Positions 2,669 through 59,025 are shown, counted from the first letter of the stretch. The stretch is DNA of 64,000 nucleotides from an uncultured Acidobacteriota bacterium (GCA_963744445.1 CAVUTP010000015.1:17744-81743); one strand, 5' to 3'. The notes: generated by a model not told the origin, from the letters alone. Translations and numbers: made by a program.

Positions 2669-3746
2669 CTACGTCTCGAAGAAGTCGCCAATCACCTGGC
2701 GCAGCGCGGGGACGGACTCGGTCCGGTTGATCGTGTGGCGGAGGTGCGATCCGTTCTCGAGGCCGCGGGTGTACCAGGCGCACAGTGCGCGGAGCTTGTT
2801 CACCACGTGGCGATCACGACCGCGACGCGTCACCTGGCGATTGTCTACTTGGCAATTGTCTATTTGCCGTTCGTGCAGATGGTCAGTTGCCAAGTGGTCA
2901 GTTGCCAAGTGACCGCCGGTCGCGAGATGTCGAAACCCTTCGGTTTCTGCCGAGCGGTCCGCGAGCAACAGGTCGATGTAGTCGAGCAGGAAGCGGCCGC
3001 GGGCGGCCATCGAGACGAGGGGCAGCGGGCAGCCATCGGACAGGGCGGCGGCCTGCGCGAAGATCCACGGGTTGCGGAGCACGCCGCGGCCGACGAGGAT
3101 ACCCGCCACGCCCGTCTCGCGCATGCGGTCGAGCAGCTCCTGCGGCTCGTTGCAGTCGCCGTTGCCCCAGACCGGGATCGACACTGCCGCGGCCACCGAG
3201 GCAATCAGCTCCCAATCGGCCAGGCCCGCTGTAGGACTGCGCGGCCGTGCGCCCGTGAACGGCAAGGCCCGCGGCGCCGGCGTCCTGCATGCGGCGGGCG
3301 AGGTCCGGCGCATTCACCTCGCTGTCGTTCCACCCCGCACGCATCTTCACGGTCACGGGAATGCGCACCGCCTTCACCATGGCGGCGACGATCGCCGCCG
3401 CACGCCCGGGCTCGCGCATCAGGCTGCAGCCGGCGCTGCTCCTCGCGATCTTCGGGACGGGACAGCCCATGTTCACGTCCACGATGTCCGCGCCAATCGC
3501 CTCCACCACCTGCGCCGCGCGCGCCATCCGCTCGGGGTCCCCGCCGAAGATCTGAATCGCGACGGGCCGCTCCTCCTCGGTGAACTCCGCGTACTCGAGC
3601 GTCTTGTCCTGCCCCCGGACGAGGCCCTCGGAGCTGACCATCTCCGACACGACCAGGCTGCACCCGCCCAGCCGCTTCACGAGGCGGCGGAACGCGGTGT
3701 CGGTCATGCCTGCCATGGGGGCGATTCCGAAGGGGAGGACGGTCAT
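2669..3746 (-). CDS. dusB: tRNA-dihydrouridine synthase DusB; apparent frameshift near 3220
   Basis: [35 protein letters not shown] motifs; continues ADWELIA...GNGD...GRG in ORF 2669..3313. Confidence 0.9.
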
Positions 3747-3882
3747 GAGGCTCCAGGCTTCTGGCTCCTGGCTTCAGTAAGGCTCAAGGCTGAAGGCTCT
3801 GGGCTTGAGAAGGCCGGAAGACTGGAGCCTTTGGCCTCTCCGAAGCCTGACGTCTGAAGCCCGAAGCCCACACGCGCCAGCG

Positions 3883-4368
3883 TCAGTACGCCCTGACGTC
3901 CGCCGCGTCCACGGTGACGGCCACGGCGCGGCCGATGAGGTCCACCGACAGCACGAGGCGGGCATGCGCGCCCTTGCGAATGAGGCGGCCGATCACGCCG
4001 CGCAGCGGGCCGGAGACCACCTGCACCATGGCGCCTTCCTTGATGAGGGGGCAGGGATCGTACTGCAGGCCGCTGGTCACCAGCGTCCGGATGGCCTCGA
4101 CCTCCGCGTCGGGCACCGCCGCCGGCCGGCCGTCGAAGCACACCACCTGCGCCACGCCGTTGCAGGTCACCACCGGCAGGAGCTGCCGCGGGTCGAAGCG
4201 TGCAAAGCAGTAGCCGGGGAACAGCGGCCAATCCACCCGCTTCTTCCGGTCCTTCCAGCGGCTCCAGCGGGTGATGGTGGGGAGGAAGACCTCGATGTCC
4301 TTGGCGGCCAGCTGGTCGTGTACCGACTTCTCCGCTCGCGACCTGGTCCAAATGGCGAACCAGTCCAT
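3883..4368 (-). CDS. NusG-paralogue transcription antiterminator (UpxY/RfaH-like)
   Basis: WFAIWTRSRAEK, PLFPGYCF, KOW-like VQVVSGPLRGVIG. Confidence 0.85.
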   Translation of the reverse strand: MDWFAIWTRSRAEKSVHDQLAAKDIEVFLPTITRWSRWKDRKKRVDWPLFPGYCFARFDPRQLLPVVTCNGVAQVVCFDGRPAAVPDAEVEAIRTLVTSGLQYDPCPLIKEGAMVQVVSGPLRGVIGRLIRKGAHARLVLSVDLIGRAVAVTVDAADVRAY

Positions 4369-4396
4369 TTAGCAAATCAAATCAACAAATGACGAT

Positions 4397-5438
4397 TTAC
4401 CCATTGACCTGGGCCTGGATCGCCGCGTCGTACATCTTCTTCAGCTCGGCGTTCTTCCACTCGATCAGCGCCTGGGCGCGGAGCTTCGCAAGGTACTTCA
4501 AGAACTCGCCGCGCCGCTTCTCGTTGGCCACGCGGTTGCTGATCTGCTCGCGCGCCTCGTCGAACGCCAGCACCTTGGTCGGGGTCTGCGAGGCGATCGC
4601 GAAGAACTGCCAGCCCTGGGACGTGCGCGTGACCGGGCTCACCTCGCCGACCTTCAGGCCCTCGAAGACCTTGCGCAGCGCCGGGTCCAGCTCCTCCTTG
4701 CTCACCGGCCCGACCAGGCCGCCGTTGGCCTTGGAGGAGGAGTCCGACAGCTCGGTTGCCAGCTTCTCGAACGACTCGCCCTTCGCCACGCGCTCGCGAA
4801 ACGCCTCGGCCTTCTGCCTTGGCGTCCTCGTCCAGGCCGACGTTCAGCGTCTTGCCGTCGTTGGGAACGGCCACCAGGAACTCGCGGACCGTCAGAGACG
4901 AGGGGGTGGTCAGCTCGTTCTTGTGCACCTCGTAGTAGCGGCGGGCCTCCTCATCGGTCACCGAGATGCGCTGCATGACCTCCACCTGCTGCACGCGGTT
5001 GATGATCATGTTCTTCTCGATCGACCGCCGCAGCTCGGCCAGCGACAGGCCTTCCTGCTTCAGCGCCGCCTGGAACTGCTCGTCGGTCTCGATCTTGTTC
5101 TCTTTCTTGATGTTCCCGAGGATCTCCGTGAACTGCTCGTCGCTGAGCTTGTAGCCCAGGTCGCGCCCGCGCTGGAGGATCAGCACCTCGTCGATGGTCT
5201 CGACCAGGAGCTGCGGGGTCACGTCGAGCAGCGCCTTCTTGAGCTCCTCGTCCGTCTTCGGCTGCACACCCCGTTGCCGCAGCAGCGCAACCTGGCGCGC
5301 CTCGAGGTCCGTCTTCGTAATGATGTCGCCGTTCACCTTCACGAGGATCTGCTCGATGATCTGGTTCTGACCGGACGCTGCCGCCGGCAGGGCCAGGAGG
5401 GTGGACAGGACGATGACGACGGGGAGCTTGGTGGACAT
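4397..5438 (-). CDS. SurA/PrsA-like peptidyl-prolyl isomerase; apparent frameshift near 4815
   Basis: Signal peptide, ILVKVNGDIIT SurA N-domain, rotamase GESFEKLATELSD..KANGGLVG in the next frame. Confidence 0.85.
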
Positions 5439-5474
5439 AGAAACGCTGCCTAAAGCCAAGAACCGAAAGCCGAG

Positions 5475-5552: not shown

Positions 5553-8500
5553 TTACCCCGGCCCGAGAAGGTCGCTCAAGATCTCGGTCACTCGACCGAG
5601 AACGCCACCCTCGGCACGGGGGTCGTCCTTCACGGGCCGGACGATGGCCTCCTTGCGAAAGCCGGGTTTGACCTCGCCCTCGGTGGCCCGGGCCGTCCAC
5701 CACGACCGGGCGGCGCCCGCCGCCCCCCGAGTGAGGAGCTTGCCGCGGCCGGAACCAGCCGTTCCAGGAAAGGCTGGTCCGACGGTCCGTCCACTCTGCG
5801 ACCCTGGCGCGACGGCTCGCTCCCCTCGACCGGCCTCGCCGTGTGAAGGCCGGCCGGTGGGGCCCTGACCGGCCCCACGACCCGGCATGGCCAGGGGCCC
5901 TCGCTGCGACCGGGGCTTCAAGTCCAGCTTGATCGCCGAGGGCGGCGCCAGCGTGATCTCCGGCCGCTGCTGCACCAGCCGGATCACCCGGTTCGGGTCC
6001 GGTCCGCCCTGACCCTTGAATGTAAAGACGACGAGGGAGCCCTGGCGGTCTACTTTCTCGATCCCGAGGCGGTCGGCGAGGATGCGGATCCGGCCGTAGT
6101 CCACCAGGTTGAGGACCTCGGTGGGCATCGGGCCGTAGCGGTCCTCGATTTCCGCCACGATACGCTCGAGCTCCTCCGCCGTCCGCGACCCCGCCACCCG
6201 CCGGTAGAGCGAGAGGCGCTGGTTCTGCTCGGGCACGTAGTTCTCGTCGATCCGCAGGTCGATGCCGAGGTTCACGATCGCGCGGGTCTCGTCCTCGATC
6301 TCCTCGCCCTTCAGCTCGCGCACCGTCTCCTCGAGCAGCTTCATGTACATGTCGAAGCCGATGGCCTCGATGTGACCGCTCTGCTCGCCGCCGAGCAGGT
6401 TGCCCGCGCCGCGGATCTCGAGGTCCAGCGCCGCCACGCGGAAGCCGCTCCCCAAATCGCTGAACTCCCGGATCGCCGCCAGCCGCTTGCGCGCGACCGG
6501 GGACAACGTGTTGCCCGGAGGGATCAGCAGGTAGGCGTACGCGGGGCGATCGGACCGCCCGACGCGGCCGCGCAGCTGGTAAAGCTGCGAGAGGCCGTAG
6601 CGGTCCGCCCGGTTGATCACGATCGTGTTGACGTTCGGGATGTCCAGGCCGTTTTCGACGATGGTGGTCGCGAGCAGGACGTCGAACTTCTTCGCCACGA
6701 AGTCCACCATCGCCCGCTCGAGCGCCTCCTCCCCCATCTGCCCGTGCGCCACGACCACCTTCGCCTCTGGCACCAGCCGCTGCAGCAGGTCCCCGATCGC
6801 GTAGATCGACTGCACCCGGTTGTGGACGAAGTAGACCTGGCCGCCGCGCGCGATCTCGTTGCGGACGACGCGCGCAATGAGCTGCTGGTCGAAGCGCACG
6901 ACGTTGGTCTGGATGGCGAGGCGGTCCTTGGGCGGCGTCTCGATCACCGACATGTCCCTGATCCCCACCAGCGACATGTTCAGCGTCCTCGGGATCGGCG
7001 TCGCGGTCATCGTCAGCACGTCCACCTTGCGGCGCATCTGCTTGATGCGCTCCTTGTGGGCGACGCCGAACCGCTGCTCCTCGTCCACGACCAGGAGGCC
7101 GAGGTCCTTGAAGACGACGTCCTTGGAAAGCAGGCGGTGCGTGCCGACGATCACCTCCACCTTGCCGTCGGCCAGGTCCTGCAGCGACTGCTTGATCTCG
7201 GCCTTCGAGCGGAACCGGCTGACCATGTCGATCCGCACGGGGAAGCCGGCGAACCGCTCGCGCAGCGTCTTGAGGTGCTGGAACGCGAGGACGGTCGTCG
7301 GCGCGAGGACGGCCACCTGCTTGCCTTCCATCACCGCCTTGAAGGCGGCGCGCATGGCCACCTCGGTCTTCCCGTAGCCGACGTCGCCGCACAGCAGGCG
7401 GTCCATCGGCGTGGACGACTCCATGTCGGACTTGATGTCGGCGACGGCCGTCTGCTGGTCGGGCGTGAGGTCGTACTCGAAGGCGCCCTCGAACTCCTCC
7501 TGCCAGTGGGTGTCGGGGCTGAAGGCGTGGCCCGCGAGGGCCCTGCGCTGGGCGTAGAGCTTCAGCAGCTCCTCGGCCATGTCGCGCATGGCCTTCTTGA
7601 CGCGGGTCTTCGCGCGCTCCCACGTGGTCCCGCCCAGCCGGTCGAGCGGCGGCCGAGTGGCGCCGGTGTATTTCTGCAGCAGGTCGAGGCGTTCGACGGG
7701 GACGAACAGCTTGTCCTCGCCGGCGTAGCGCAGCTCGAGGAACTCCTGCGTGTCGGGGCCGTAGGGGTCGATTCTGATCTGCTTGAGGCCGACGAACACG
7801 CCGATGCCGTGGTCCACGTGGACGACGTGGTCGCCGACCTTGAGGTCGCGGAAGTCGGAGAGGAAGGTCTTGGCTGCGGAGCGGCGACGCTCGGAGGGCC
7901 GGCGCTCCTCCTCGAAGACGTCGGTCTCGGCGAAGATCTGCAGGGCGGCGGACGGCAGGTGGAAGCCGCGGGAGAGGGCGCCGGTGGCGACGAGCACGGA
8001 GGCGGCGTGCGCCATCTCCGTCCGGGCGGGCACGGCATCGCGCTGTCGGGGATCGACGAACACGGGGACCGCGATCAGCTCGTACTCGCGAAGGACCTCC
8101 ACCGTGCGCTCGGCGCGGCCGGGCGTGGCGGCGACGAACAGGACGGTCTCGCCCGCCTCACGAGCCCGCTTGATGTCGGCCACCCAGTCCGCGATGCGGC
8201 CGCGGAATTCCACGGCGGGGCGGCAGGACATCGTCACGGGAGTCGTGCTGGGGGTGCTGGAGGTGCTGGGGGTGCTAGTGCTAGAGGTGCTGGGGGTGCT
8301 AGTGCCAGAGGTGCTCGACTCACTAGCCACTGTCGGGTCCGTCCCGCCCTCCGCCCCCCGCCCCCCGCCTTCGACGATCTCCAGCTCGTCGAGTCTCGTT
8401 CCCAGCTCGACGAGCGACGCAATCTCTTCCAGCGGGGCGAAGAGCTGCTCCGGGGGCGGCGGGTTGCCGCCGCGGCCAATCATCTCGCGGTGGCTGGAGG

Positions 8501-9872
8501 CCAGCTGCGCGAGCGATTTCTCCGCGCGCGCCTCCACCTCTTCGGCCTCGCAGACGAAAATCACCGGCTGCTCGACGAAGTCCAAGAGCGAGGCGGACAA
8601 CTGCGCGCCTGGCTCCAGCAGCGCGGGGTAGTTGGGCGGAGGGGGCGGCGGCTCGGCTTCGAGCGGGAGGGAAAGGCCTCCGGGCTCGTCCTCATCATCG
8701 ACGTCGTCGTCTCCCTGCCAAGCCCAGGACAAATCCTGCTCGGACTCTTCGCTGCCCTCGCTCGTCGTGCCGGGGGTGCGGGAGGTGCCAGGGGTGCCGG
8801 AGGTGCTAGTGCCCGAGTCGCCCCTGCTATAGGTGCTGATGGTGCTCGTGCGGGAGGTGCCGGGCGTGCTGGTACTGTAGATGCCCGGTCCCGCTGCCCG
8901 TGCCCGTGACCCACTGTCCACTGTCCACTGTCCACCGGCCACTGGCTTCCCGCCCTCCGCCCGCCCCCCTCCCCCTTCGCTCGCGTGATCACCTGCGACC
9001 TTCGGCGGGACAAGCCCGCCCCCCGCCCTCCCCCCTCCGCCTTCTCCGGACTCACTGCCCGCTGGCCACTGCTCACTGGCCCTTGGCCGCCCGCCCTCCG
9101 CCCTCCGCCCTCCGCCTTCGTCTGTAAACACCTCCCGTAGCGGCACGATCTGGACGCGTTCGATCTCCCCCGTCGAGCGCTGGGAGGCGGGGTCGTAATG
9201 GCGGATGGACTCGACCGTGTCGCCGACGAAGTCCAGGCGGACCGGCTGCGCGCTGCCGGCGGGAAACACGTCAATCACGCCGCCGCGCACGCAGAACTCG
9301 CCGTGCTCGTCCACGGGGTCCTCGCGGCTGAAGCCCGCGTCGAACAGCAGGTCCGCAAGGGCGTAGGGATCGACGTCGGCGCCCGTGCGGATTTCGATGG
9401 AGGCGCGAAGCAGCCGATCGGGCGGGCTCAGGCGCGGCAGCAAAGCGGTCGCGGAGGCGACGATGACCCGCGCGACGCCCGTGGCCGCCGCGTGGAGCGC
9501 GCGGGTGCGCTGCGAGAGCACGCCAAGGTGTGGCGAGAGGCCGCGGTAGGGATCGACCTCGTGCGAGGGGAACGGCAGCACGGCCTGCTGCGCCGCGGCA
9601 TCGGACAGGCCCTCCATCGAGGCGAGGAAGAAGCGGATGTCGTCCGTGTACTGCTCGACGTCCGCGTCGGTCGGCACCACCACGACGAGCGTCTTCCCCC
9701 GGGTCCCCGGCCGAGGCGCCGGCGCGTGGCGCGTGGCGGCAGTCGCCAGGTAGAGCGCCTGGGCGGCGGCCGGCAGACCGGTAACGACGCCGCCCGGGGC
9801 CTGGTCGCCCAGGTGCGCCCGCGCGGTGGTGTTCTTGAGAAGCGCCTGGAGGGTCAGGGACGTTGTAGACAC
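5553..9872 (-). CDS. mfd: Transcription-repair coupling factor Mfd with long low-complexity insertions
   Basis: GEFCVRGGVIDVF, DHVVHVDHGIG (RID), GDVGYGKTEVA, VVDEEQRFGV, TATPIPRTL, QLRGRVGRS, DLEIRGAGNLLGGEQSGH, TRCF domain. Confidence 0.97.
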   Translation of the reverse strand: MSTTSLTLQALLKNTTARAHLGDQAPGGVVTGLPAAAQALYLATAATRHAPAPRPGTRGKTLVVVVPTDADVEQYTDDIRFFLASMEGLSDAAAQQAVLPFPSHEVDPYRGLSPHLGVLSQRTRALHAAATGVARVIVASATALLPRLSPPDRLLRASIEIRTGADVDPYALADLLFDAGFSREDPVDEHGEFCVRGGVIDVFPAGSAQPVRLDFVGDTVESIRHYDPASQRSTGEIERVQIVPLREVFTDEGGGRRAEGGRPRASEQWPAGSESGEGGGGRAGGGLVPPKVAGDHASEGGGGRAEGGKPVAGGQWTVDSGSRARAAGPGIYSTSTPGTSRTSTISTYSRGDSGTSTSGTPGTSRTPGTTSEGSEESEQDLSWAWQGDDDVDDEDEPGGLSLPLEAEPPPPPPNYPALLEPGAQLSASLLDFVEQPVIFVCEAEEVEARAEKSLAQLASSHREMIGRGGNPPPPEQLFAPLEEIASLVELGTRLDELEIVEGGGRGAEGGTDPTVASESSTSGTSTPSTSSTSTPSTSSTPSTTPVTMSCRPAVEFRGRIADWVADIKRAREAGETVLFVAATPGRAERTVEVLREYELIAVPVFVDPRQRDAVPARTEMAHAASVLVATGALSRGFHLPSAALQIFAETDVFEEERRPSERRRSAAKTFLSDFRDLKVGDHVVHVDHGIGVFVGLKQIRIDPYGPDTQEFLELRYAGEDKLFVPVERLDLLQKYTGATRPPLDRLGGTTWERAKTRVKKAMRDMAEELLKLYAQRRALAGHAFSPDTHWQEEFEGAFEYDLTPDQQTAVADIKSDMESSTPMDRLLCGDVGYGKTEVAMRAAFKAVMEGKQVAVLAPTTVLAFQHLKTLRERFAGFPVRIDMVSRFRSKAEIKQSLQDLADGKVEVIVGTHRLLSKDVVFKDLGLLVVDEEQRFGVAHKERIKQMRRKVDVLTMTATPIPRTLNMSLVGIRDMSVIETPPKDRLAIQTNVVRFDQQLIARVVRNEIARGGQVYFVHNRVQSIYAIGDLLQRLVPEAKVVVAHGQMGEEALERAMVDFVAKKFDVLLATTIVENGLDIPNVNTIVINRADRYGLSQLYQLRGRVGRSDRPAYAYLLIPPGNTLSPVARKRLAAIREFSDLGSGFRVAALDLEIRGAGNLLGGEQSGHIEAIGFDMYMKLLEETVRELKGEEIEDETRAIVNLGIDLRIDENYVPEQNQRLSLYRRVAGSRTAEELERIVAEIEDRYGPMPTEVLNLVDYGRIRILADRLGIEKVDRQGSLVVFTFKGQGGPDPNRVIRLVQQRPEITLAPPSAIKLDLKPRSQRGPLAMPGRGAGQGPTGRPSHGEAGRGERAVAPGSQSGRTVGPAFPGTAGSGRGKLLTRGAAGAARSWWTARATEGEVKPGFRKEAIVRPVKDDPRAEGGVLGRVTEILSDLLGPG

Positions 9873-11668: not shown

Positions 11669-11819
11669 CCGCCTATTCTACGCGCGGGGACAGCACTGTC
11701 ATTTGTTGATTTCTTGAGTTGTTGATCTGTTGATTTGATTGGGTGATTTAGTGATTGGTGTTGGGTGTTTGGATGTTCAGCGCAGGCGCGAGGGCAGGCT
11801 CAACTGGATAAGGCCAAAG

Positions 11820-12301: not shown

Positions 12302-13717
12302 TCACTTGTTGATCTTCTGACTTGTAGATTTGTTGATTGATTGGTTGATTAGCTGATTTGTTGATTGGCGATCTACAGATTTCAACCTTACATTCTCCGA
12401 GAACTCCCAGGTGTGGCGGGGCCGGTGGATGCCCACGTCCTTGATGCGCGACTTCACCCGGAACGTGTAGAGCGACCGGTGGTAGTCGTAGGGCGCGCCG
12501 TCGCGGCGGTGGGCGGCGACGTCCAGCTTGTAGGTGCCCTCCACCAGGTCGAGGCCGTCGATCCGGAAGGTCACGGTGCCCTCTCCCTCGATCGACACGG
12601 GCAGGAACTCCTCGATGTCGGTGTTCGTGCCGTAGACGCAGAGGCCCTCGGCATTGAAGAGGCCGACGCCGAAGACGAAGTCCTTGACCTCCCGCAGGGC
12701 GCGGACGCGCAGGCGCACGGCGGCGGGCTCGCCCGACTGGAACACGTGCCTCATTTCGCCGGCCGCGTCGAGCAGCGCGACGTCGATGATCTCCACGTCG
12801 CGCGTGCCCCACCGCCCGTCGGTCGGCTTGTTCGGATCGACGGCCGGCTCCTGGCCGCCCGCCTCCGACGCGGCCTGGGGCTCGGCGGCCGGCATCGGCG
12901 GCGCCTCGCCGCCCGACGTCTGCGCCGCCACGCGCGCCTTCGCGTCCGCCGCCGCGAGGTGCTTCTCCTCGGACTTCGCCACGTCGGAAATGTAGGCCGA
13001 CACGACGCGGCGCGGGTCGCCCTCGCCGCGGATGCGCCCGGCGTCGAGCCAGAGCACCTCGTCGCAGAACTTCTCCACGAGGTTCAGCGAGTGCGTGACG
13101 AGGAGGACGGTCTTGCCGCGCTTCCTGAACTCCGCGAACTTGTCGAGGCACTTGTGCGTGAACGACTCGTCGCCGACGGCCAGAACCTCGTCTATCAGGA
13201 GCACGTCGGGGTCCACGTTGATGGCCACGGCAAACCCGAGGCGCATGTACATGCCAGACGAGTAGGTCTTCACCGGCGCGTCGATGAAGTCCTGCAGCTC
13301 GGCGAACTCCACGATCTCGTCGAAGCGTTTGGCCACCTCGCGCTTCGACAGGCCGAGCATGATGCCGTTGATGAAGACGTTCTCGCGTCCGGAGATCTCG
13401 GGGTGGAAGCCGGCGCCCAGCTCGATGAGCGCGGAGATGCGGCCCTTCACGTCCACGGTGCCCTCGGTCGGCTTGGTGATGCCGGCCACGAGCTTGAGCA
13501 TGGTGCTCTTGCCCGACCCGTTGCGGCCGATGATCCCGTAGGTTGCGCCGGTCTTCACGCGGAAGGAGACGTTCTTGACGGCGGCAAAGGTCTCGTCGGG
13601 GCGCAGGTCGCGCAACACGGTGCCCGACAGCAGCGCGCTCTTCAGCGTGGCGAACTGCCGCCGGTTCCCGAACCGCCGGTAGACTTTCGTAACGCCTGTG
13701 GCTTCTATGGCGAACAT
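12302..13717 (-). CDS. wzt: Polysaccharide ABC exporter ATP-binding subunit with Wzt_C domain
   Basis: [42 protein letters not shown]; C-terminal Wzt_C-like domain. Confidence 0.9.
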
Positions 13718-13898
13718 GATGTCCTACGATTGGCGTCTGCCCCGGCGTTCGCTTGTGTTGACGGCGAGGCTGTTGTGTTCGCGGGTCCTGCCGCCGTTTT
13801 CCCCCACGGCACCCCAGCGCGGCTGCCGCGCCGGGGACCCCGCCCGGCTTCCCTCGAACAGCCTGATCCCCGATCCCTGACCCCCGATCCCTGTTCTG

Positions 13899-14696: not shown

Positions 14697-14840
14697 GCGG
14701 TGGAATCTCGAAAGGCTTCAGGCTTCTGGCTTCGGGCTCTAGAGCGGCCAAAGGTCTCGGGCTTCAGGCTGTTGGGCCTCGAGCCCGGCCTCGTGCTGGA
14801 GCCGAAGCCTCCGGCCTCTCCAGAGCCTGAAGCCTGGAGC

Positions 14841-17869
<3,029 letters not shown>

Positions 17870-17951
17870 TCACAAGTCCGAGTCTGAACTCGCAAGTCCG
17901 AGTCAGCGGGTCTTTGTCAGCGGTCCGCATCGTGCATTCTGCACTTTGCAC

Positions 17952-18825: not shown

Positions 18826-18904
18826 GTCAAAACGCTCACGGCTATCGGCTCACGGCTCAGGGCCTGTCACGCGTGCACTCTGCACTTTGCACTCTGCATT
18901 GCGG

Positions 18905-20434: not shown

Positions 20435-20564
20435 ATCGCTTCGCAATTCACCTGGTGGAGGTCACCTGTCACTTGGCAATTGACCACTTGGCCATTCTCT
20501 ATTTGAACTTGACCATATCCGACTCAAATAGACAGTCGCCAAGTAGACAATCGTCAAGTGGCGG

Positions 20565-21105: not shown

Positions 21106-21232
21106 TCTGCTCCAGCGATCACGGTTGACGGCTCAGGGTTGAGGGTGCGGCACGCGTGACAGCGTGGTCTGCTGTCCACCGACCACTGTCCACTGTCCAC
21201 CCACTGGCTACCAGCTAGTTCCCCGCGCCGAC

Positions 21233-22018: not shown

Positions 22019-22022
22019 GGGG

Positions 22023-26279: not shown

Positions 26280-26316
26280 TTCTCGATCTCTTGAGTTGTT
26301 GATCTTTCGATTGATT

Positions 26317-27138: not shown

Positions 27139-27288
27139 TATCAATAACTTACAAGGAATTTGCCGAGACGGGCCGCACGAGCACGAGGGCAATCAGGATA
27201 GCAGATCCATTTGTTGATTTAACGATTTGTTGACTTCTTGATTTTCATTTTGGCTTATTGCAGAGATTACGAGTGCTAGAGTATTGCC

Positions 27289-28115: not shown

Positions 28116-28227
28116 TGCGGCAGGTGCGGCGTGGCGGCCCGACGACGCCCTTACCCCTAGACCCTTAACTCTCGACCTCTTCTTTGCCCTGGCCCCGAGC
28201 TAGCCCCTATCCCCTAACCCCGAGTCC

Positions 28228-30070
<1,843 letters not shown>

Positions 30071-34229: not shown

Positions 34230-34415
34230 GAACTAAAAGGCCTTTGCCCTGCGAAGATGCGGTCGCTGCGCCTAACGGTCGTTCACGGTTGACAGTTCAC
34301 CGTTAACGGTTCAGCCCCGGCTTGACGATGTACTCTCAACTCTCGTTCACGGCGTGGGGAACCCTCAACTCTCAACTCTCGACCGTAGATGCCGACCTGA
34401 CCCTTGACCGTGCCC

Positions 34416-38522: not shown

Positions 38523-38669
38523 GCATGAGCATATAGGCGGGAAGGCGGCAGGCGGTAGGCGGGACGAAGAGCCCCTGGCCCCCCGCCCTCCAGCTGACAC
38601 GAAGCAAACAACCGGCGGCAGGCGACAGAAGGAACGGAACCGCCTTCCGCCCCCCCGCCCTCCGCCTAG

Positions 38670-44659: not shown

Positions 44660-44807
44660 GTCTCGGCCGATCGGACGGCTCAAGGCTCATGGCTTCGAGC
44701 CTCAAGGCAGATCACACTTCTCTGGCCGTGTGACACGGCCCTGAGCCTTAAGCCCTGAGCCCTGAAGCCGGATGGGGCCTGCCGGCGCGCGACCGTCCTC
44801 GCGCCGG

Positions 44808-47061: not shown

Positions 47062-47219
47062 GAACTGTCAGTAGGCGGTAGGGGGTAGGCGGTAGGCTGC
47101 GAGCCAGCGGGCTGCGCGCAACAACCGGTCCATTGTACGCGCTCACGGCCCCTCAGGGCGACCGTTAACTCTACTCAGCGTGACTCTAGTGATCTCAACT
47201 GCCTACTGCCTACTGCCTA

Positions 47220-49074
47220 CTATTCCACCGTCACGCTCTTCGCCAGGTTCCTCGGCTGGTCCACGTCGCAGCCCCGGCGCACCGAGATGTGATAGGCGAG
47301 CAGCTGAAGCGGCACGACCGCGATGACGGGCGTGAGCAGCGGAGACGATTCGGGCAGGCTGATGATCGAGTCCGTCGTGTCGAGCAGCCCTTCGACGAGC
47401 TCGTCGCGGCCGGTGGTGAGCGCGATGACCGAGCCGCCCCTGGCCTTGACCTCCTGGATGTTGCTCAGCATCTTCTCGAACACGTGATCGCGCGTGGCGA
47501 TGGCCACCACGGGCATCTGCTCGTCGATGAGGGCGATCGGCCCGTGCTTCATCTCGCCGGCGGGGTAGCCCTCGGCATGGATGTAGGAGATTTCCTTCAG
47601 CTTGAGGGCGCCCTCGAGGGCAATGGGGTAGTTGATGCCGCGACCCAGGTAGAGGAAGTCCTTGCGGTTGTAGAAGCGCCGGGCGATCTCGTCCACCAGC
47701 GCCGACACGCGGAGAGTCTGGTCGATGAGCGTCGGCAGCTGCAGCAGGTTCTCGATGTGCCCGCGCGCTTCTTCCTCGCCGATCGTGCCGCGAATGCGGG
47801 CCAGGTGCAGCGCGAGCAGGTAGAGCGCGACCAGCTGCGAGGTGAACGCCTTGGTCGAGGCGACGCCGATTTCCGGCCCCGCGTGCGTGTAGACGGTGCC
47901 GTCGCTCTCGCGGGTGGCCATGCTGCCCACGACGTTGCAGATCGCCACGCAGCGCGCGCCCTTGTGGCGCGCCTCGCGCAAGGCGGCCAGCGTGTCCGCG
48001 GTCTCGCCCGACTGCGTGATCACCACCGCGAGCGTCCGGGGCCCGACGATCGGGTTGCGGTAGCGGTACTCCGAGCCGTAGTCCGTCTCCACGGGCAGGC
48101 GCGCCAGCGACTCGATCAGGTACTTGCCCACCAGCCCCGCGTGCCACGACGTGCCGCACGCGATGATCGACACGTTCTCGACGGCGGCCAGCTCCGTCTC
48201 CGACAGCGTCATCTCCTCGAGGAAGACGCGCGCCGTGTCGAGCGACACGCGGCCGAGCACCGTGTCGCGCACGGCCTGCGGCTGCTCGAAGATCTCCTTC
48301 AGCATGAAGTGCTTGTAGCCGGCCTTCTCCGCCTGGATCGGGTCCCACGACACGCGCTGGGTGGGGCGGTCGAGCGTGGTCCCGGCGAAGTTCGTGAAGA
48401 CGACCCCGTCCTTGGTGAGGACCGCCATCTCCTCGTCCGCGAGGAACACCACGTCGCGCGTGTGCGCCAGGATGGCCGGGATGTCCGAGGCCACGAAGTA
48501 CTCGCCGTCGCCGATGCCCACCACGAGGGGGGGCCCGTTGCGGACGGCCACGATCTTCCGGGGTTCGTCGGCCGACAGCAGGACGAGCGCGAACATCCCG
48601 CGCAGCCGGGCGAGCGCCCGGCGCGTGGCGCACTCGAGGCCGCCGCCCGCCGGCACCTCCTTCAGCTCCTGCTCGACGAGGTGCGCGACGATCTCCGTGT
48701 CCGTCTCGGTGACGAACTTGTGGCCCTTCGCCTGCAGCTCCTGCTTCAGCTCCAGGTAGTTCTCGATGATCCCGTTGTGGACCACGACGATGCGGCCCGA
48801 ACAGTCGCGGTGCGGGTGGGCGTTCTCCTCGGTGGGGCGGCCGTGCGTGGCCCAGCGGGTATGGCCGACGCCGAACTCGCCGTCGATCGGGTCCGTACCG
48901 AATGGCCTCCTCGAGGCGAGAGAGCTTGCCGGCGCTGCGCCGCAGGCCGATGGCGCCGTTGCGCACGAGCGCGATGCCTGCCGAGTCGTAGCCGCGGTAC
49001 TCGAGCCGGCGCAGACCCTCAATCAGGACCGGGACGACCGGTTTGGGCCCGATGTAGCCAATGATGCCGCACAT
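47220..49074 (-). CDS. glmS: Glutamine--fructose-6-phosphate aminotransferase; apparent frameshift near 48900
   Basis: [52 protein letters not shown]. Confidence 0.97.
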
Positions 49075-49246
49075 GAGGATGATCCTCGTCAGGTTCCAAG
49101 GGAGCGACGCTGTGCCAGATCAGGGAACAAGGGAACAACTGACCACTTGGCAAATTGCCCCACGTGGCCGCATTCGAAACCCCAGATAGCCAGTGGCCAA
49201 ATAGACAATTGCCAAATAGAGAATTGCGAAGTGATCCCCGTCCTCC

Positions 49247-50635: not shown

Positions 50636-50756
50636 TACGGTAGTGTAGATCGTTGACGGGTCACGGTTGACGGTTCACGGTTCTCCCACGCTGTCAGGCG
50701 CGGTCTGACCGTGTAAACCGTGAACTGTTGACCGTCAACCTTCTTTACCGAAGTGC

Positions 50757-52616: not shown

Positions 52617-54278
52617 GTGTATTCATCCGAACCGCTGCATCATTTCGTCGACGACTACCTCCAGTACCTCTACGAGACCCACCCGACTTCCGCGGCGCTG
52701 GACGGCGTGCATACGCACGACGACCTGCTCGAGGACATGAGCCGCGCGCGGCCTGGAGGGCCAGGCCCGAGCGCTTTCGGGCTTCGCCAGGCGGCTGGAC
52801 GAAATCCCCCTGGAGGGCCTGACCGAGAGCGAGCGCGTGGAGCACCCGGTCATCGCGTCCACGATCCGCTCGCGCATCTTCGAGATCGAGGAGAGCCGCT
52901 CCTGGGAGCGGAACCCTCAGATGTACGCCGACGTCCTGGCCACGAGCCTCGCGACGCAGGCCATCTTCCCGTACGCCCCGGAAGAGGAGCGCGCCCGCCG
53001 CGTGTTCTCCAAGCTCCGCCAGGCGCCCCGCCTGCTCCAGGCGGCCCGCGACAACGTGAAGGAGCCGCCGGGGATCTACGCGAAGGTGGGGCTGGAGGCG
53101 CTGCGCGGCGTCCTCAAGTTCATCGAGCAGGACCTGCCCCGGGCCTTTTCCGGCGTGGACGACCTGCACCTGCTCGGGGACCTGGCCGACGCCTCGGTGG
53201 AGGCAACCGACGCGCTGAAGGGCTACATCACCTACCTGGAGACGGATCTGGCGCCGCGCGCCCGCGCCTCGTTCCGCCTGGGCCGCGAGCGCTTCGAGAA
53301 GAAGCTCAAGCTGGACGAGGGCCTCGGCGTCGGGGTGGACAAGCTGCTTGCGATCGCCACCCGCGAGCTGTGGGCGGTGCAGGAGGAATTCCGCCGGGCG
53401 GCGTCCCGCGCGGACAGCGGCGACCCGCTGGATGCCTGGCGGCGCATCAAGGCCGACCACCCGGCGCCCGGGCGAGCTGGTCGGCGTGGCGCAGCGGCAG
53501 ATCGAGAAGCTGCTGACCTTCATCGAACGCCACGACCTCGTCACGCTCCCGCCGGGCGAACCGCTGATCGTCGCGCCGACGCCGGAGTTCTACCGCTGGA
53601 GCTTCGCGAGCCTGTGGACGCCGGGCCCGTTCGAGACGAAGCCGACCCGGTCCTACTACTACGTCACCGACGCCGACCCTTCCTGGCCGGCCGAGCGCCA
53701 GGACGAGCACCTGCGCGACTTCAACCACGCGACGATGTGGTCGATCTCGATGCACGAGGCCTACCCGGGGCATTTCGTGCACGCGCGGCACCTGCGGCAG
53801 GTGGAGTCGAAGCTGCGGAAGTCGCAACCTCTTCTCGCCGGCCTCCGCCGTGGAAGGGTGGGCGCACTACTGCGAGCAGATGATGATCGAGGCGGGCTTC
53901 GAGAAGGGCAACCACCTCGTCAAGCTCGGGCAGCTGGCCGAGGCCCTCGTCCGCCTGGCGCGCTTCATCGTGGGGATCCGCCTGCACGCCGAGGACATGT
54001 CGGTGGAGGCGGGGATGCGGTTCTTCCGCGACGAGGCCTTCATGGAGGAGGGGAGCGCGCGCCGCGAGGCGGAGCGCGGGACCTTCGACCCGACCTACCT
54101 GGTCTATTCAGCCGGCAAACTGATGATCCTGAAGCTTCGGGCCGACTACAAGGCGCAGCAGGGCGCCAAGTACTCGCTCAAGGGCTTCCACGACACGCTG
54201 CTCGGCAATGGCGCGCTGCCGATCTGGGCCCAGCGCAGGCTGATGCTGCCGGGCGATCGGGGGGAAGTCATCGAGTAG
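52617..54278 (+). CDS. DUF885 family protein; about three apparent frameshifts
   Basis: HPTSAALDGVH, HEAYPGH, EGWAHYCEQMM motifs across frames. Confidence 0.85.
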
Positions 54279-54351
54279 TGCAAAGTGCAAAGTGCAAATG
54301 CACAGGATGCGTCACCGTGTGACCCCCTGATTCCTGAAGCCTGAGTGAGAG

Positions 54352-54681: not shown

Positions 54682-54790
54682 AGCCCTGCTCCGACCGTAG
54701 ATTCAAGGCAGCGGCGATTCTGCAGCGTGCCGTTTTGCAGCGTGCATTCTGCAGCGTGCACTTTGCATTCTGCATTCTACATTCTGCATT

Positions 54791-56692
54791 CTACGGAGCC
54801 TCCCAGCTTTCCACGCGTTCCTGCACGCGCGACCACCAGCGGAGACGGCGCATCATCGAGCGCTTCTTGTGCTGGTGAGCGGCCATCCGGCGGAGGATCC
54901 GATCCAGGAGATCCACCGCGTCGAGGATGTGAGGCCCCTTGTTCAGCATCACGCACTCGGCGCGCACCGACATCGCCGCGTCGGTGATTTCCGCGCGCGA
55001 CGGCTGCCCCAGCTTCGCCAGGTTCTCGAGGACCTGGGTCGCCCACACCACCGGCACGTGGGCCGCCTCGCAGATCCACAGGATCTCTTCCTGCACCTCG
55101 GCCAGGCGCTCGTAGCCGCACTCCACCGCGAGGTCGCCGCGCGCGATCATGATTCCGATCGCGGGGCTCGACATGGCGGCCAGGATCAGCTCCGGCAGCA
55201 GCTCGAAGGCCCGCCGCGTCTCCACCTTCAGCAGGATCCCTCGGCAGCGGCCGCCGCCGACTGCCGCCAAGCGTGCCTGCAGGCGGCGGACATCTTCCAC
55301 GGACCTCACGAACGACAGCCCGACGATATCCGCGTGCCGCGCGACGATGGCGAGATCGAGGATGTCGCGCCGCGTCATCGCCCCCACGTCCATGCGCGTC
55401 TCGGGCAGGTTGATGCCCCGGCCCGCGCGCAGGCGATCGCCGCCGGTCTTCGCGTGGGTGATCCTCACGAGGACGTGGTCGTCCTTCACCGACTCGACGA
55501 CCCCTCCGATCCGCCCGTCGTCGAACCAGACCGACTCGCCCCGCCGAGCCGGCGCGAAGGCCCGCGGCAGCGTGCAGGAGATGGCGGCAGGAGTGGAGAT
55601 GGAGCCGCTGTCGTCGAGTTGCGCCTCGCGGCCGGGAATCGGCGCCCGCGTCACCATCAACGCGTCCCCGCGCTGGAGCAGGAGACCTTGCTCCTGCCGG
55701 GGGATGCCGGCCAGCGAGGCCGTCAGCGACTTCTTCTTGCCCTTGCGGCGCACCCGGAAGCGGGTGCCGTTGGTAACGTAGGCGGTCGAGCGGCCTTGGG
55801 CGAGGCAGAACGTGCCGCCCTGCCCGGTCACGACGAGCGACCGGCTGGCCTGCCGGGTATCCCGGAACCGGATTGTGTCCCCGACGTTCAACGCGGCGAT
55901 GAACCGACGGGGCAGCGTCAGCGTGGCCACGGGGGTCACGTCGAGGCTGACGGCTGGGAGCCGGCCCCGGGCGCGGAGCACGACGGTAGCCGGGGTGACG
56001 ACGCGCCCCAGGCGATCGCGGACGGGGCGCCACTTGATGACGGCCGGCCCCGGCTCGATCCGGCCGGTGCGGACCTTCGGGCCGCCGAGGTCCATGACGA
56101 TCTTGCACGGCAGGCCGAGCTGCTTCGACGCCCGCCGCACGTGGCCCGCCATCTTCACCCAGTCCGCGGCCGTGTCGTGCGCGCAGTTGATGCGGGCGCA
56201 GTTCATGCCCCGGCGGATCAGCTCCGTCACGAGGTCGGGATCCGTGGCCGCCTCCGTCGGCAGCGTCACCATGATTCGAGCGGTCCGCTTGCGCGGTTCG
56301 TCGCCGAGCAGCGCGCGCGCGTGTTGCGCGATGATGTCGCGGCCCTCGTCCAGCGCCACGGGTGGCGTGGGGTCGCCGTTGTCGGCGGGACGCCCGGCGA
56401 CCGGCCGCAGCAGGCCGATGACCGCGTTGAGGTTCGCGAGCACCGCGGACTCGCTGTGGCCCAGGGAAGAGGCGCCGGCGGCGGAAAGGCGGCGCTGGAC
56501 ACGGCGGACGTCGTGGCGGCGGAGCGCCACGTAGTGGACCAGGTTGCGCGCACTGGCCCGATAGGAGGGGTGGATCCGGTCGAGGGGTTTGACGAAGCTG
56601 CTTTCGAGCTTTTCCAGCTGCGCGCGGAGCTTCATGAGCTTCGACACGAGCGCGCGATAGGCGGACCGGTGGGGGGGCGGCTTCCTCGGCAC
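54791..56692 (-). CDS. pyk: Pyruvate kinase, long atypical form
   Basis: [64 protein letters not shown]. Confidence 0.88.
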
Positions 56693-56885
56693 AGCTCGAC
56701 CTTTTGGAGCAAGGGTAGCACAACCCCTTGGAAGGGGTCGGGGCTCCCTTCCCTCGGCCGGTTCGGCGTCAACCGGGAGTGAGTGCCAACCGGAGTGGGT
56801 GCCGGTTGAGTGCCGGCGAGTACCGGACCGGTGTAGAGTAAAACACGCTTGCCCAGCTCATGGGGCGACACCTGGAGGCACGAGC

Positions 56886-57790
56886 GTGAAGCTTCAAAAC
56901 ATCATCAGGGCCGCACGCGAGCTTTCCGAGCCGTACGCGATCACCAACGGCCGCCGCTTCCGCGTGAAGGACGTTGACCCGCGCGACACGGGTCCGCTCA
57001 AGGCCGAGGACAAGCCGCGAGCCGCCGACGCGCTGCGCGAGGGCATCGAGGCGATGGCGGCGCTCCAGGACAAGCTGTACGCGCAGGACCACTGGGCCGT
57101 CCTCCTCATCTTCCAGGCCATGGACGCGGCGGGGAAGGACGGCGCCATCAAGCACGTGATGTCCGGCCTCAACCCGCAGGGCTGCCAGGTGGCGAGCTTC
57201 AAGGCGCCGTCCGCCGAGGAGCTGGACCACGACTACCTGTGGCGGTGCCAGCGGCACCTGCCCGAGCGCGGGCGCATCGGGATCTTCAACCGGTCGTACT
57301 ACGAGGAGGTCCTGGTGGTGCGGGTGCACCCGGAGATCCTCGAGCGGCAGAAGCTCCCCGCGGCGCTCGTGGACGGGAAGATCTGGAAGCGCCGCTACGA
57401 GGACATCGCGGCCTTCGAGCGCTACCTGGCCACAACGGCACCATCGTCCGGAAGTTCTTCCTCCACGTGTCGCGGAAGGAGCAGAAGCGCCGATTCCTCG
57501 AGCGGCTCGACACGCCGGAGAAGAACTGGAAGTTCTCCGCCGCCGACGTGAAGGAGCGGGGCTACTGGAAGGACTACATGGCGGCCTACGAGGAGATGAT
57601 CCGGAGGACGGCCACGAAGTCGGCGCCCTGGTACGTGGTGCCGGCCGACAACAAGTGGTTCACGCGCGCGGTGGTGGCCGCGGCGGTGGTGGACGCGCTC
57701 GGGTCGCTGAACCTGCGCTACCCGGAGGTCGGGCCCGCGCAGCAGAAGGAACTGGCGGCGGCGAAGCGGCTGCTGCTGGCGGAGAAGTAA
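56886..57790 (+). CDS. ppk2: Polyphosphate kinase 2 family; apparent frameshift near 57430
   Basis: [54 protein letters not shown]. Confidence 0.92.
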
Positions 57791-57922
57791 CGCGCGGAGT
57801 CCTGAGCGAGCTCTCGAGGACGCGCGAGTCGAAGGGCGAAGCGGCTCCTGCTGGCGGAGCTCCACTACAATACGCGCGTGGATATCAGCCGGTGCGGCGG
57901 GCGGGCCCGAGCGGGGAGCGTG

Positions 57923-58979
57923 ATGAGACCGATCCGACGCACCTGCGGCCTCGTGGCCGCCTGCCTTGCGGTCGCCCTGATCGAGGCCGCGGCCCCGGCT
58001 GCCCCGCTGCCGCCGGACATCGCGGGGTTCCTCACGAAGACGGCCGGGTTCAGGGAAGCGGACCTCTCCGCGCTCGAGGCCGGGCGAGTAATCAGCAGGG
58101 CCCAGCCCAGCACGGCCGCGACGGAGATCTTCGTGCTGGCCGCGGTCAAGATCCGGGCGAACCGGGAGCGGGTCGCGAGCTACTTCGGGCAGATGGTGAA
58201 GTACGTGGACGGCGAGATCACGCTCGGGTTTGGCCGGTTCTCCACGCCGCCCCAGCTGTCCGACGTCGCGACGCTCACACTCGACCGCGACGAGATCGAC
58301 GCCCTGCGGTCCTGCAAGCCCGGGGACTGCGACCTGAGGATCGGCGGCGCAGGGATCGAGACCATCCGCCGCGCCGTCAACTGGAACGCCTTGAATTCGC
58401 CGGAGCAGGCGCAGCGGGCCGTGCGCAAGGCGCTGGTCGATTACGTCACCGCCTACCAGGCGCGCGGCGACCAGGTGCTGGTCACCTACAACGACCAGTC
58501 GAGGCCGGTGAGCCTTGCCGAGCAGTGGCGCGGGATTGTCGCCGGGTCGAAGTGACTTCCTCCAGTACCAGCCGGTGCTGCGCGACTACATCACCCTGTA
58601 CCCGGATGCCACGCTGCCTGGCGGGCAGGACATCATGTACTGGGTGAAGGAGAAGTTCGCCCCTCTCAAGCCCATCATCAGCATCGTCCACGGCGTCGTG
58701 TACGACGCGCCCGGTGGCGCGAATCGCACGACGATCGTTCAGAAGCAGATCTACGCGAGCCACTACTACGATGCCTCGGTCGCGCACACCACCCTCGCGG
58801 AAGCAACGGAGGCGGGCAAGCCCGTGACCTACCTGGTCTACGCGACGCGGGCGCGCGGCGACTTGCTGAAGGGAGGCTTCGGGGGCATGAAGGGTGGCGT
58901 GGCGCGCAGCCAGGCGCGCAAGGGAGCCGAGGGGACGCTCGCGACGATCCAGGAAGTGCTCGAGAAGTCCGGGCGATAG
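57923..58979 (+). CDS. Hypothetical secreted protein; apparent frameshift near 58553
   Basis: Signal peptide; two abutting GC3-rich ORFs (…KQIYASHYYD…). Confidence 0.65.
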
Positions 58980-59025
58980 CCCGCGAGCCGGGCACTGGCA
59001 CCTCCGGCACCTGTAGCACCTTCTG

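Follow-up and report, generated by a model that had tools for sequence, protein, structure and literature searches.

Paired heptamer arrays in gene junctions of an uncultured Acidobacteriota bacterium and their possible kinship with TIGR02436 cassettes

RESULTS

A 64,000-nucleotide (nt) stretch of DNA from an uncultured Acidobacteriota bacterium, hereafter the window (G000:C15:17744-81743 of a 6.38-Mb draft genome with 26 contigs and 69% G+C), carries short tandem arrays of mostly 7- or 8-nt units in the majority of its gene junctions. We give a somewhat better than even chance to the reading that these arrays are palindromic elements resembling repetitive extragenic palindromes (REPs) and MITEs (miniature inverted-repeat transposable elements), that they are gene-less relatives and partly decay products of TIGR02436 cassettes of the intervening sequence (IVS) type, and that their arms evolve by slippage. 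An element would consist of two facing arms around a short core, each arm holding 3 to 10 tandem 7- or 8-nt units (a 15-mer in one family), and the core would usually be the palindrome TCACGCGTGA in this genus and one sister genus. The source cassette would have the build of a 23S rRNA IVS, its two arms enclosing a loop that carries a small four-helix-bundle gene of the Avd-like kind (TIGR02436/PF05635). A first-pass annotation of the window had suggested a shared generating or mobilizing mechanism. A common origin or mechanism is backed by the small vocabulary of units, the single apex palindrome, the conserved ends of the TTGATT family, the restriction to one bacterial family, and the link to TIGR02436 genes.

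Period-7 arrays exceed chance and partly pair as inverted arms

Genome-wide, Tandem Repeats Finder (TRF) returned 1700 period-7 rows at a score of at least 30, compared to 390 and 381 in two dinucleotide shuffles within 100-nt blocks. At stricter thresholds, with one such shuffle as the control, the excess over composition-matched chance amounts to 865 rows versus 5 (score ≥40), 351 versus 1 (≥50), and 122 versus 0 (≥60). Period 7 is the most prominent of the periods that are not multiples of three, and period 8 is weaker (72 rows versus 7 in the shuffle at a score of ≥40). Most period-7 rows (1457 of 1700, 86%) lie in non-coding-like DNA, i.e., the 26% of the genome devoid of codon periodicity. 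Together, arrays with periods of 7, 8, and 14 to 16 occupy 51.8 kb, or 0.81% of the genome. Genome-wide counts that depend on gene positions are approximate, being based on our own crude codon-score gene caller (71% coverage) and a codon-periodicity map.

After merging, 1143 period-7 arrays remained, and these were grouped into 38 clusters. The 10 largest clusters account for 86% of the arrays and the 20 largest for 97%, with ACCACTG, AATGCAG, and AGCTGCC as the top unit families. Same-family neighbors less than 100 nt apart are mostly inverted (139 inverted versus 16 direct); the counts are 12 versus 7 at 100 to 300 nt and 9 versus 7 at 300 to 600 nt, and beyond 600 nt direct neighbors are at least as common. 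By alignment, 28% of the 1143 arrays have an inverted partner arm, against 4.6% with a direct partner and 0.7% in a reversed control. The inverted arms described as frequent are thus present, but they involve only a quarter to a third of the arrays. Paired arms do not in general enclose genes: there is no enrichment beyond 300 nt, and the translations of open reading frames (ORFs) enclosed at 250 to 1000 nt look ordinary upon inspection. Nor does one family cluster locally along the chromosome (68 of 704 adjacent loci are same-family, versus 60 ± 7 after permutation).

Most TIGR02436 genes examined lie between inverted arrays

The first-pass annotation had placed similar arms, in other genomes, beside four-helix-bundle genes of the TIGR02436 family. 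None of these genes was found in the window, as annotated, and the link holds in the wider genome: all three TIGR02436 genes lie between inverted arrays (AAGGCGG/CCGCCCT, TTGATT/AATCAA, and AGTGGGC/CCACTGG), as do 18 of 20 in relatives, which gives 21 of 23 in total. The 20 genes from relatives comprise 10 from the same family and 10 from seven other families, so that 8 families of the order are represented altogether. Each bracketed gene in the relatives has its own 7- or 8-nt unit; the remaining two genes have one arm and no arm, respectively. The equivalent link proposed for GxxExxY genes is not supported, the sole, broken copy in this genome having no adjacent arrays. That copy, the only match to GxxExxY (TIGR04256), is interrupted by a TGA and lies in an A+T-rich island at G000:C25:23286-23990, which is probably foreign DNA in this genome of 69% G+C.

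The closest solved relative of the TIGR02436 protein is XCC0516 of Xanthomonas campestris (PDB 2GSC, PF05635; E value of 4.9e-22). Rehm et al. (PMC4692102) list, in a supplementary table, a heptamer repeat (no. 15, 622956-622983) that overlaps the start of XCC0516, so the link between arrays and IVS-type proteins reaches another phylum. PF05635 has been found to resemble Avd (PMC10053308). No reverse transcriptase gene lies beside the TIGR02436 genes, and the only one in the genome is on another contig. The 23S gene of this genome (C14:387653-390640) contains no array or cassette-like insert. We know of no role for the large "23S IVS protein" family outside diversity-generating retroelements.

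The TTGATT family connects gene-carrying and gene-less copies. Complete elements (GTCATTTGTTGAT...ATCAACAAATGAC) occur six times, versus none in a reversed-order control. Five are gene-less and 113 to 164 nt long, including 31711-31866 in the window, and the sixth spans 682 nt and contains a TIGR02436 gene. Compared with the ends of 31711-31866, those of this cargo-bearing copy agree at 46 of 72 aligned positions (left) and 51 of 70 (right); shuffled sequences, used as a control for the left end alone, matched at 39 positions on average and at 45 at most.

The first TIGR02436 locus is orthologous across the family and is found in four states: gene with arms, arms only, one arm, and nothing. 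Arms flank a gene-sized insert in 10 genomes, with a TIGR02436 match listed in 8; of the other two, G173 lay outside the TIGR02436 search, and the copy in G003 may have decayed. Both arms alone, with 100 to 140 nt between them, are present in G002, G011, and G018, one arm in G001, and neither arm in G006 and G015. By eye, G002 and G001 look as if they hold remnants of the 3' end of the gene. The arms are mostly of the GGATTC type; four genomes have AAGGCGG, GAGGAAC, AGGGACG, or the 8-mer AGGCGGAA, and the unit switch affects both arms together. In G014, a variant unit, GGAGTC, is spreading among the GGATTC units of one arm. As a comparison of sequences at one locus, this series is direct evidence for unit drift by homogenization and for a path from cassette through hairpin and single arm to nothing. 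In the proposed scheme, gene-less elements would at least partly be decay products of the cassette, the gene would be lost first, then one arm, then everything, and the arms would change through replication slippage and homogenization.

One apex palindrome is shared by many arm families

Loops of paired elements have a motif in common, GCGTGA, irrespective of arm family; it occurs in 59 of 94 loops, versus 2.9 expected. The palindrome TCACGCGTGA has 78 sites in the genome, 72 of them in non-coding-like DNA. A period-7 array is found no more than 60 nt away from 55 of the sites, although DNA this close to an array makes up 2.7% of the genome. Alignment gives the element build as array, CAGnnnR, TCACGCGTGA, YnnnCTG, inverted array. 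The arms around this core belong to at least six families (CAGTGGN, CAGCTGG, GGATTCA, ACGGTTG, GGCTCTN, TAGTGGC, and GGGCGG types), and a few core elements have arms of two different families, among them 18834-18898 and 21120-21200 in the window. Only the 10-nt apex and the CAG/CTG linker are conserved across elements; the arms vary.

The strict pattern CAG-N4-core-N4-CTG has 21 copies in this genome, and of 150 other genomes of the class, 3 have a single copy each. Among family members, 10 of 15 genomes of one sister genus carry it (1 to 26 copies) and none of six genomes from four other genera does, and the same pattern read backwards has no match in any genome. Near atpA (samples of 8.9 to 20 kb, most of them 20 kb), period-7 arrays occur in 9 of 10 family genomes (1 to 8 each), versus 1 of 10 genomes of similar G+C content from other families of the order, with one array in all. 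The array trait is confined to a single family of the order. A derivation of the apex from the fused inner borders of a cargo-bearing copy was tried and found weak, the expected half being present at the left border in 2 and at the right border in 5 of 19 cases, versus 0 and 1 of 19 in the controls.

Elements come and go at orthologous junctions

The comparison of orthologous junctions proposed by the first-pass annotation revealed switching of both array presence and identity. At the atpA-atpG junction, 5 of 11 family genomes carry arrays, with four different unit sets. In the other six, 43 to 71 nt without arrays separate the last aligned atpA residue from atpG, and in 10 genomes of other families, which also lack arrays at this junction, the distance is 2 to 48 nt, with one genome holding an unrelated 200-nt insert. 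At a tight operon junction in the sister genus, which measures 13 to 26 nt in two genomes, three different elements are present in four others (two CAGTGGT with the core, one AGCTGNC with another core, and one TAGTGGC). In each filled case, the stop codon of the upstream ORF now lies in the first unit of the arm. Because orthologous junctions differ in this manner, the elements represent 60 to 160 nt of extra DNA, placed immediately behind stop codons, that comes, changes, and goes.

A side observation concerns L095 (G022), from a sister family without heptamer arrays. Both its atpA-atpG and atpG-atpD junctions have an insert of ~200 nt, ending in ...CGTCAGTTCCGCGCGGGGGTGGGGCCCCGCGC, which looks like another kind of intergenic repeat.

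The junctions bear on a simpler account, in which the arrays are plain simple sequence repeats (SSRs) born by slippage on the spot, with 7 nt favored by the replicase, inverted arms made by template switching, and no mobility, function, or tie to genes. In many bacteria, the most common class of long SSRs is the heptamers, and the footprint of the polymerase has been put forward as an explanation (Mrazek et al. 2007, via PMC4679880; also PMC4692102). Slippage would also accommodate the spread of unit variants within arms, such as GGAGTC in G014, and the differences in copy number and unit between orthologous sites. However, it leaves unexplained why 10 families make up 86% of the arrays when more than 1000 unit classes are possible, why one apex palindrome is common to many arm families, and why the ends of the TTGATT family are conserved. 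The 60 to 160 nt of new DNA in junctions of 2 to 48 nt in relatives, the single array in ten sister-family atp samples of like G+C content, and the bracketing of 21 of 23 TIGR02436 genes also speak against it, and we consider this account unlikely.

Arrays sit near gene ends and paired arms fold into stems

Gaps of 100 to 200 nt are occupied by arrays in 41% of convergent, 26% of co-directional, and 14% of divergent cases. Single arrays lie at a median of 20 nt from the upstream stop codon and 64 nt from the next start (228 nearer the stop, 129 nearer the start), and most families show no bias in the orientation of their single arrays. For the 107 pairs defined by TRF, the median length is 87 nt and the median fold -56 kcal/mol. 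Of seven arm pairs folded in the window, five have z scores of -3.8 to -6.7 and two are weaker (-2.36 and -1.83), and no folding occurs at two hetero-arm sites and two single TTGATT arms. By analogy with rRNA IVSs, paired arms would form a long stem in RNA that may be cut by RNase III, and insertion into operons would be tolerable because of such cutting.

The arrays might therefore be thought of as selected RNA devices (3'-end stabilizers, attenuators, or RNase III sites that tune operons, like the REPs of Escherichia coli) in which the tandem build is incidental. Their proximity to stop codons, the order of gap occupancy, and the stability of the stems all fit this idea. Yet T-runs follow 7 of 214 stem sides, compared to 22 of 2000 random non-coding positions, and since they follow so rarely, the stems are not canonical intrinsic terminators. 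Selection at the RNA level, sought through G-U strand asymmetry, left no signal (among 70 co-directional pairs, the sense strand has the more stable fold in 40; Wilcoxon P = 0.31). RNA devices are further at odds with the unfolded hetero-arm and single-arm sites, with the patchy presence at an orthologous junction (5 of 11 genomes), and with own arms that pair worse than arms from different elements (see Discussion), which makes them an improbable explanation. The TTGATT arrays were also rejected as start-codon leaders: 24 motif matches end in AAATG, 6 of which precede a coding-like ORF, and the ATG at a TTGATT array is part of the element terminus.

RAYT mobilization and an operator role are both unlikely

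The elements could be hairpin-forming REP doublets (REPINs) copied by a REP-associated tyrosine transposase (RAYT), as suggested by their REP-like distribution with palindromic doublets, by a copy number of the core pattern that ranges from 0 to 26 inside one genus, and by Y1-transposase homologues in 17 of 22 family genomes. However, the best score of the RAYT model in the genome is 57.5 bits, versus a cutoff of 80. Neither of two RAYT-like loci adjoins a core; there are no arrays near the first, and three ordinary arrays lie at most ~200 nt from the second. The Y1 gene of the window is an IS200/IS605 TnpA, scoring 101.7 bits, compared to 28.2 for the RAYT model, and Y1 matches do not follow core counts across genomes. 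RAYT mobilization is not supported, and we hold it to be very unlikely. A role as multi-site operators to which a single global DNA-binding protein, or a small number of them, would bind, which is the authors' own proposal for Geobacter (PMC2700814), would suit a palindromic core and a small vocabulary common to several genera but appears highly implausible for arrays that lie at gene ends rather than promoters, occupy divergent gaps least, drift freely in unit at orthologous sites, and occur in frame inside mfd.

Arrays in the window

The window includes the replication-origin neighborhood (rnpA-yidC-jag-mnmE-mnmG, rsmG, parAB, and dnaA-dnaN-gyrB-gyrA) and additionally contains the atp operon, mfd, and others. 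Based on GyrB, the nearest relatives are uncultured Acidobacteriota (71 to 76% amino acid identity). By curated count, arrays occupy 24 of the 42 gene junctions, a figure that becomes 24 of 35 once junctions shorter than 30 nt are set aside, in line with the initial statement that most junctions hold one. The automatic TRF count (periods of 7, 8, and 14 to 17; hand-made gene list) gave 27 of 42 and 27 of 35; curation removed seven two-copy G+C-rich rows and added 26280, 27211, 58980, and the 15-mer arms at 2835-2911, which TRF had missed. Arrays inside tight operons were confirmed at the atp, parAB, and yidC-jag-mnmE-mnmG junctions.

Direct reading and TRF recovered the arrays listed in the first-pass annotation (TGCATTC at 17930 excepted, being outside the comparison). 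These are of the GGCTTCA type (3745-3870, 14710-14850, and 44675-44770), the TTGATT type (4370, 11700, 12305, 26280, 27205, 30070, and 31712-31870), CCACTGT (8905 and 21170), CCGCCCT/GGCGG (8950 and 38535-38670), TGATCCC (13860), CAAGTCT (17845), the TGCATTC type (18870, 54278, and 54715), ACGGTT (21120, 34275, and 50650-50745), CCCCTA (28148-28230), CTCAACT (34330-34385), GTAGGCG/CTGCCTA (47070-47220), and GGCACC (58990). The 15-mer (TTGCCAA) family is present as well: its motif TTGRCRAYTGNCYA gives 11 matches at 8 places in the window. The features are as follows, with a strand given where one is assigned.

2835..2911: pair of inverted 15-mer arms (TGGCAATTGTCTACT / TGGTCAGTTGCCAAG), 2.1 copies in each, where dus has its 3' end
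3748..3869: hairpin of GGCTTCA/TGAAGCC heptamer arrays in the gap from dus to a nusG-like gene (z -4.79, RNA fold -66.5 kcal/mol)
4369..4396: short AATCAA-type array whose last bases, AATCAACAAATGAC, are the terminus of the TTGATT/AATCAA family (read directly)
8245..9116, minus strand: 7- and 9-mer arrays (CCACTGT, CCGCCCT, GTGCTGGGG) in frame within the mfd ORF, giving low-complexity inserts (TRF, translation)
11698..11772: single TTGATT 8-mer arm, first bases GTCATTTGTTGATT (minus-strand RNA G-free and unstructured, minimum free energy 0)
12305..12370: TTGATT array at the junction of wzt and a cytidylyltransferase gene; the tail of the wzt ORF reads through (TRF, read directly)
13862..13893: TGATCCC heptamer array between both ABC transporter genes (TRF, read directly)
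14713..14848: GGCTTCA/AGAGCCT heptamer-array hairpin (fold -90.7 kcal/mol, z -6.70)
17846..17904: CAAGTCT/GACTTGN array between atpD and atpG, with a like unit at the orthologous junction of G001 and G006 (TRF, comparison)
18834..18898: hetero-arm element between atpG and atpA, with 4.3 copies of GCTCACG, core TCACGCGTG (18867), and 3.6 copies of TGCACTC (no hairpin, z 0.05)
20525..20559: 2.3 copies of a 15-mer (CAAGTAGACAATCGC) directly upstream of atpA (TRF, motif search)
21120..21200: hetero-arm element between atpH and atpF, with an ACGGTT arm, core CACGCGTGACAGCGTG (21151), and a CCACTGT arm (z 0.60)
26279..26318: TTGATT-type array, first bases GTCATTTCTCGAT, between parB and parA (read directly)
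27207..27250: TTGATT-type array at the parA/rsmG junction (read directly)
28148..28221: CCCCTA/CTAACCC arrays downstream of mnmG (TRF, read directly)
30069..30133: TTGATT 8-mer array of 7.9 copies in the mnmE-mnmG gap (unstructured as RNA)
31711..31866: complete gene-less palindromic TTGATT element (GTCATTTGTTGAT...ATCAACAAATGAC) in the jag-mnmE gap (z -3.78)
34281..34380: ACGGTT and CTCAACT arrays downstream of yidC (TRF, read directly)
38535..38666: AGGCGG/CCGCCCT inverted arms in the dnaN-gyrB gap (z -2.36)
44677..44765: GGCTCAA/GCCCTGA hairpin downstream of uvrD, past a canonical terminator at ~44630-44660 (z -6.05)
47071..47221: GTAGGCG (3.9 copies) and ACTGCCT (3.4 copies) arms, ~100 nt apart (z -1.83)
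49196..49227: 2.1 copies of a 15-mer (GCCAAATAGACAATT) (TRF, motif search)
50652..50745: ACGGTT/AACCGT hairpin (z -5.07)
54277..54302: AGTGCAA array of 3.9 copies (TRF, read directly)
54708..54792: TGCATTC array of 7 copies with a 14-mer superperiod (TRF, read directly)
58988..59020: short GGCACC-type array (read directly)

In the mfd ORF (5553-9872, minus strand), ~870 nt of arrays are translated in frame into Gly/Arg/Glu-rich and Ser/Thr/Pro-rich inserts that separate the UvrB-homology domain from the RID domain. A repeat of the TTGAT type (period 21/29) at 31459-31518, inside the 5' part of the mnmE ORF, may be another in-frame array insert; the TrmE_N match in mnmE is ~27 residues longer than the profile. 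On the minus strand at 11698-11775 and 30068-30135, TTGATT arms would read as 68 to 78 nt of G-free A/C/U mRNA, unstructured and directly before start codons. This composition is as expected for putative Rho-loading or S1-binding leaders.

Two other features of the window were noted. A true IS200/IS605 TnpA gene (NF033573) lies at 22778-23359 on the minus strand, within 22680-24172, with CCCCGGCAGAGCCGGGG hairpins flanking both ends. The gene is located inside a 280-nt tandem repeat with 2.5 copies that are 93% alike; neither Rfam nor protein families gave a match to this repeat. In the origin region, directly upstream of the likely dnaA start, the 17-mer GGGTCACTTTCGGGGTC is repeated 5.8 times with 92% identity at 35527-35625 and is unlike the heptamer families.

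Regarding the assembly, dus (2669-3746), mnmG (28228-30169), gyrA (41345-43870), uvrD (44808-47061), and atpD (15086-17860) are each split over two frames. Contigs of other sequencing runs show 1-nt deletions relative to the window at 15126, 15259, 16640, and 18024, so the frame breaks in these five essential genes are probably assembly indels and not pseudogenes. The best sequencing run shares a fraction of 0.23 of the words and all others at most 0.15; four runs were compared as short contigs. One contig, from a run that is possibly derived from the source sample, equals window positions 11677-11922 with zero differences and spans the array at 11701-11772.

DISCUSSION

Several observations weigh against our preferred reading of the arrays as REP/MITE-like relatives of TIGR02436 cassettes. 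About 70% of the arrays have no detectable partner arm and are thus mostly single arms, as slippage alone would also have it. There are only three TIGR02436 genes for ~1100 arrays, with no further gene remnants in the genome at an E value of ≤0.001, so descent from cargo-bearing copies is extrapolated for most loci. Either turnover is very fast or, as suggested by their conserved apex and ends, gene-less copies multiply alone. Sister families with array-free atp samples also have TIGR02436 genes, and G001 has arrays and no TIGR02436 gene; the gene alone therefore does not predict array load. None of the 19 loci examined has both expected apex halves at its inner borders, no transposase is linked to the elements, and no target-site duplication is visible between filled and empty sites at the tight junction and the TIGR02436 locus. 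The crude gene map, which covers 71% of the genome, is a weakness as well.

The arms themselves add a last difficulty. In the ACCACTG family (n = 22), arms of the same element pair with a score of 15.3, versus 17.6 for arms taken from different elements, and none of 5000 permutations gave a value as low. Two smaller groups point in the same direction (P values of about 0.09 and 0.12), and examples are found at C1:4106-4170 and C14:67366-67448. This deficit speaks against arm-to-arm correction and against simple selection for a stem, and concerted evolution of both arms within an element was rejected, the opposite having been found. The deficit may reflect the removal or avoidance of near-perfect palindromes.

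To our knowledge, intergenic heptamer repeats have been known for decades in cyanobacteria, Xanthomonas, Geobacter, and sulfur bacteria and are unexplained, and the arrays described here are a richer variant of this repeat class. The short tandemly repeated repetitive (STRR) sequences of cyanobacteria had been named as the nearest described analogue, a place that belongs instead to the paired arrays of Xanthomonas (PMC4692102) and Geobacter (PMC2700814). X. campestris and X. axonopodis carry paired convergent GGGAATC heptamers, ~90% of them intergenic (Rehm et al. 2015, PMC4692102). As in the present genome, these lie nearer the upstream ORF (28 versus 160 nt there, 20 versus 64 nt here), include 70 to 75 inverted pairs able to form stem-loops, and vary in length and sequence between related genomes. 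Unlike here, a single unit dominates and is read as a G-quadruplex former, whereas we find at least 10 major families, mostly not G-tract; the GGGAATC-related AATCCTG and AATCCCG families exist here and are not among the top families. A conserved apex palindrome and a tie to four-helix-bundle genes are features of our elements that the accessible part of that paper does not describe.

Geobacter metallireducens has paired tandem-repeat sites with 3 to 5 units of 7 to 9 nt (Aklujkar et al. 2009, PMC2700814). They too are mostly opposite-strand pairs at variable distance, with several classes per genome, between and within genes. They differ in number (tens of copies there, ~1000 here) and in being read as binding sites of global regulators, and no cargo gene or core is described in the accessible part of that source. 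The STRR sequences of heterocystous cyanobacteria and the TAACTGA repeats of Beggiatoaceae resemble our arrays as tandem intergenic heptamers of several unit types with unexplained function (PMC4679880). The host here, however, is an Acidobacteriota and not a heterocystous cyanobacterium. The TAACTGA sets are direct repeats that lie directly upstream of starts and keep a fixed orientation, a single one of the 170 being inverted (PMC4679880), in contrast to the common inverted pairs and mostly unbiased orientation found here.

Published 23S IVSs consist of an S23p ORF in the loop of a stem formed by 28-bp terminal inverted repeats and cut by RNase III (PMC4990558). The small four-helix-bundle ORF in a loop closed by an inverted-repeat stem is matched here by the cargo-bearing copies only. 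IVSs are also sporadically distributed and regarded as selfish (PMC4990558), a further likeness to our elements. Unlike IVSs, the cassettes lie between protein-coding genes and not in 23S rRNA (helix 25 or 45), their arms are tandem heptamers, and gene-less forms outnumber cassettes hundreds to one. With REPs, bacterial interspersed mosaic elements (BIMEs), REPINs, and MITEs, the arrays share abundance as extragenic imperfect palindromes, depletion between divergent genes, a core-plus-arms mosaic, and a copy number that varies widely between congeners. As with MITEs, short gene-less copies of the TTGATT family share their ends with a longer gene-carrying copy. The differences are that no RAYT or other transposase is linked, that arm sequence is not conserved between copies, that no target-site duplication was seen, and that the cargo is TIGR02436, which has no known transposition activity.

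In the literature covered, which excluded most subscription journals, we found no paper on such arrays in Acidobacteria and none that links TIGR02436 genes to flanking heptamer arrays, nor anything on a many-family vocabulary, an apex common to families, TIGR02436 bracketing outside rRNA, or a decay series. Under the reading that we prefer, the elements would mainly be selfish or neutral passengers, like REPs/BIMEs or MITEs, and not dedicated regulators. Tying the repeats to IVS-protein genes provides a testable account of their origin, from cassette to hairpin to single arm, with two concrete handles in the apex palindrome and the TIGR02436 protein. A practical consequence is that arrays lengthen ORFs and add low-complexity peptides, as in mfd and the wzt tail, and thereby mislead gene callers.

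A bolder extension, which we put forward tentatively and with the balance tilted against it, is that the hairpins and the TIGR02436 cassettes are one widespread, previously undescribed kind of element, of which rRNA IVSs are a special case. Such an element would be a small Avd-like gene for a nucleic-acid-binding protein, enclosed by microsatellite arms that are complementary to each other. The long stem would let the cassette leave any transcript, the protein or a recruited enzyme would copy the element, and the apex would be the site of action. If true, operons, rRNA, and even protein-coding sequence (in frame) would all be open to the cassette, and its gene-less offspring and remains would account for much of the DNA between genes in several phyla. 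Should RNase III cut the stems, the mRNA processing of operons in these soil bacteria would be shaped by ~1000 such sites.

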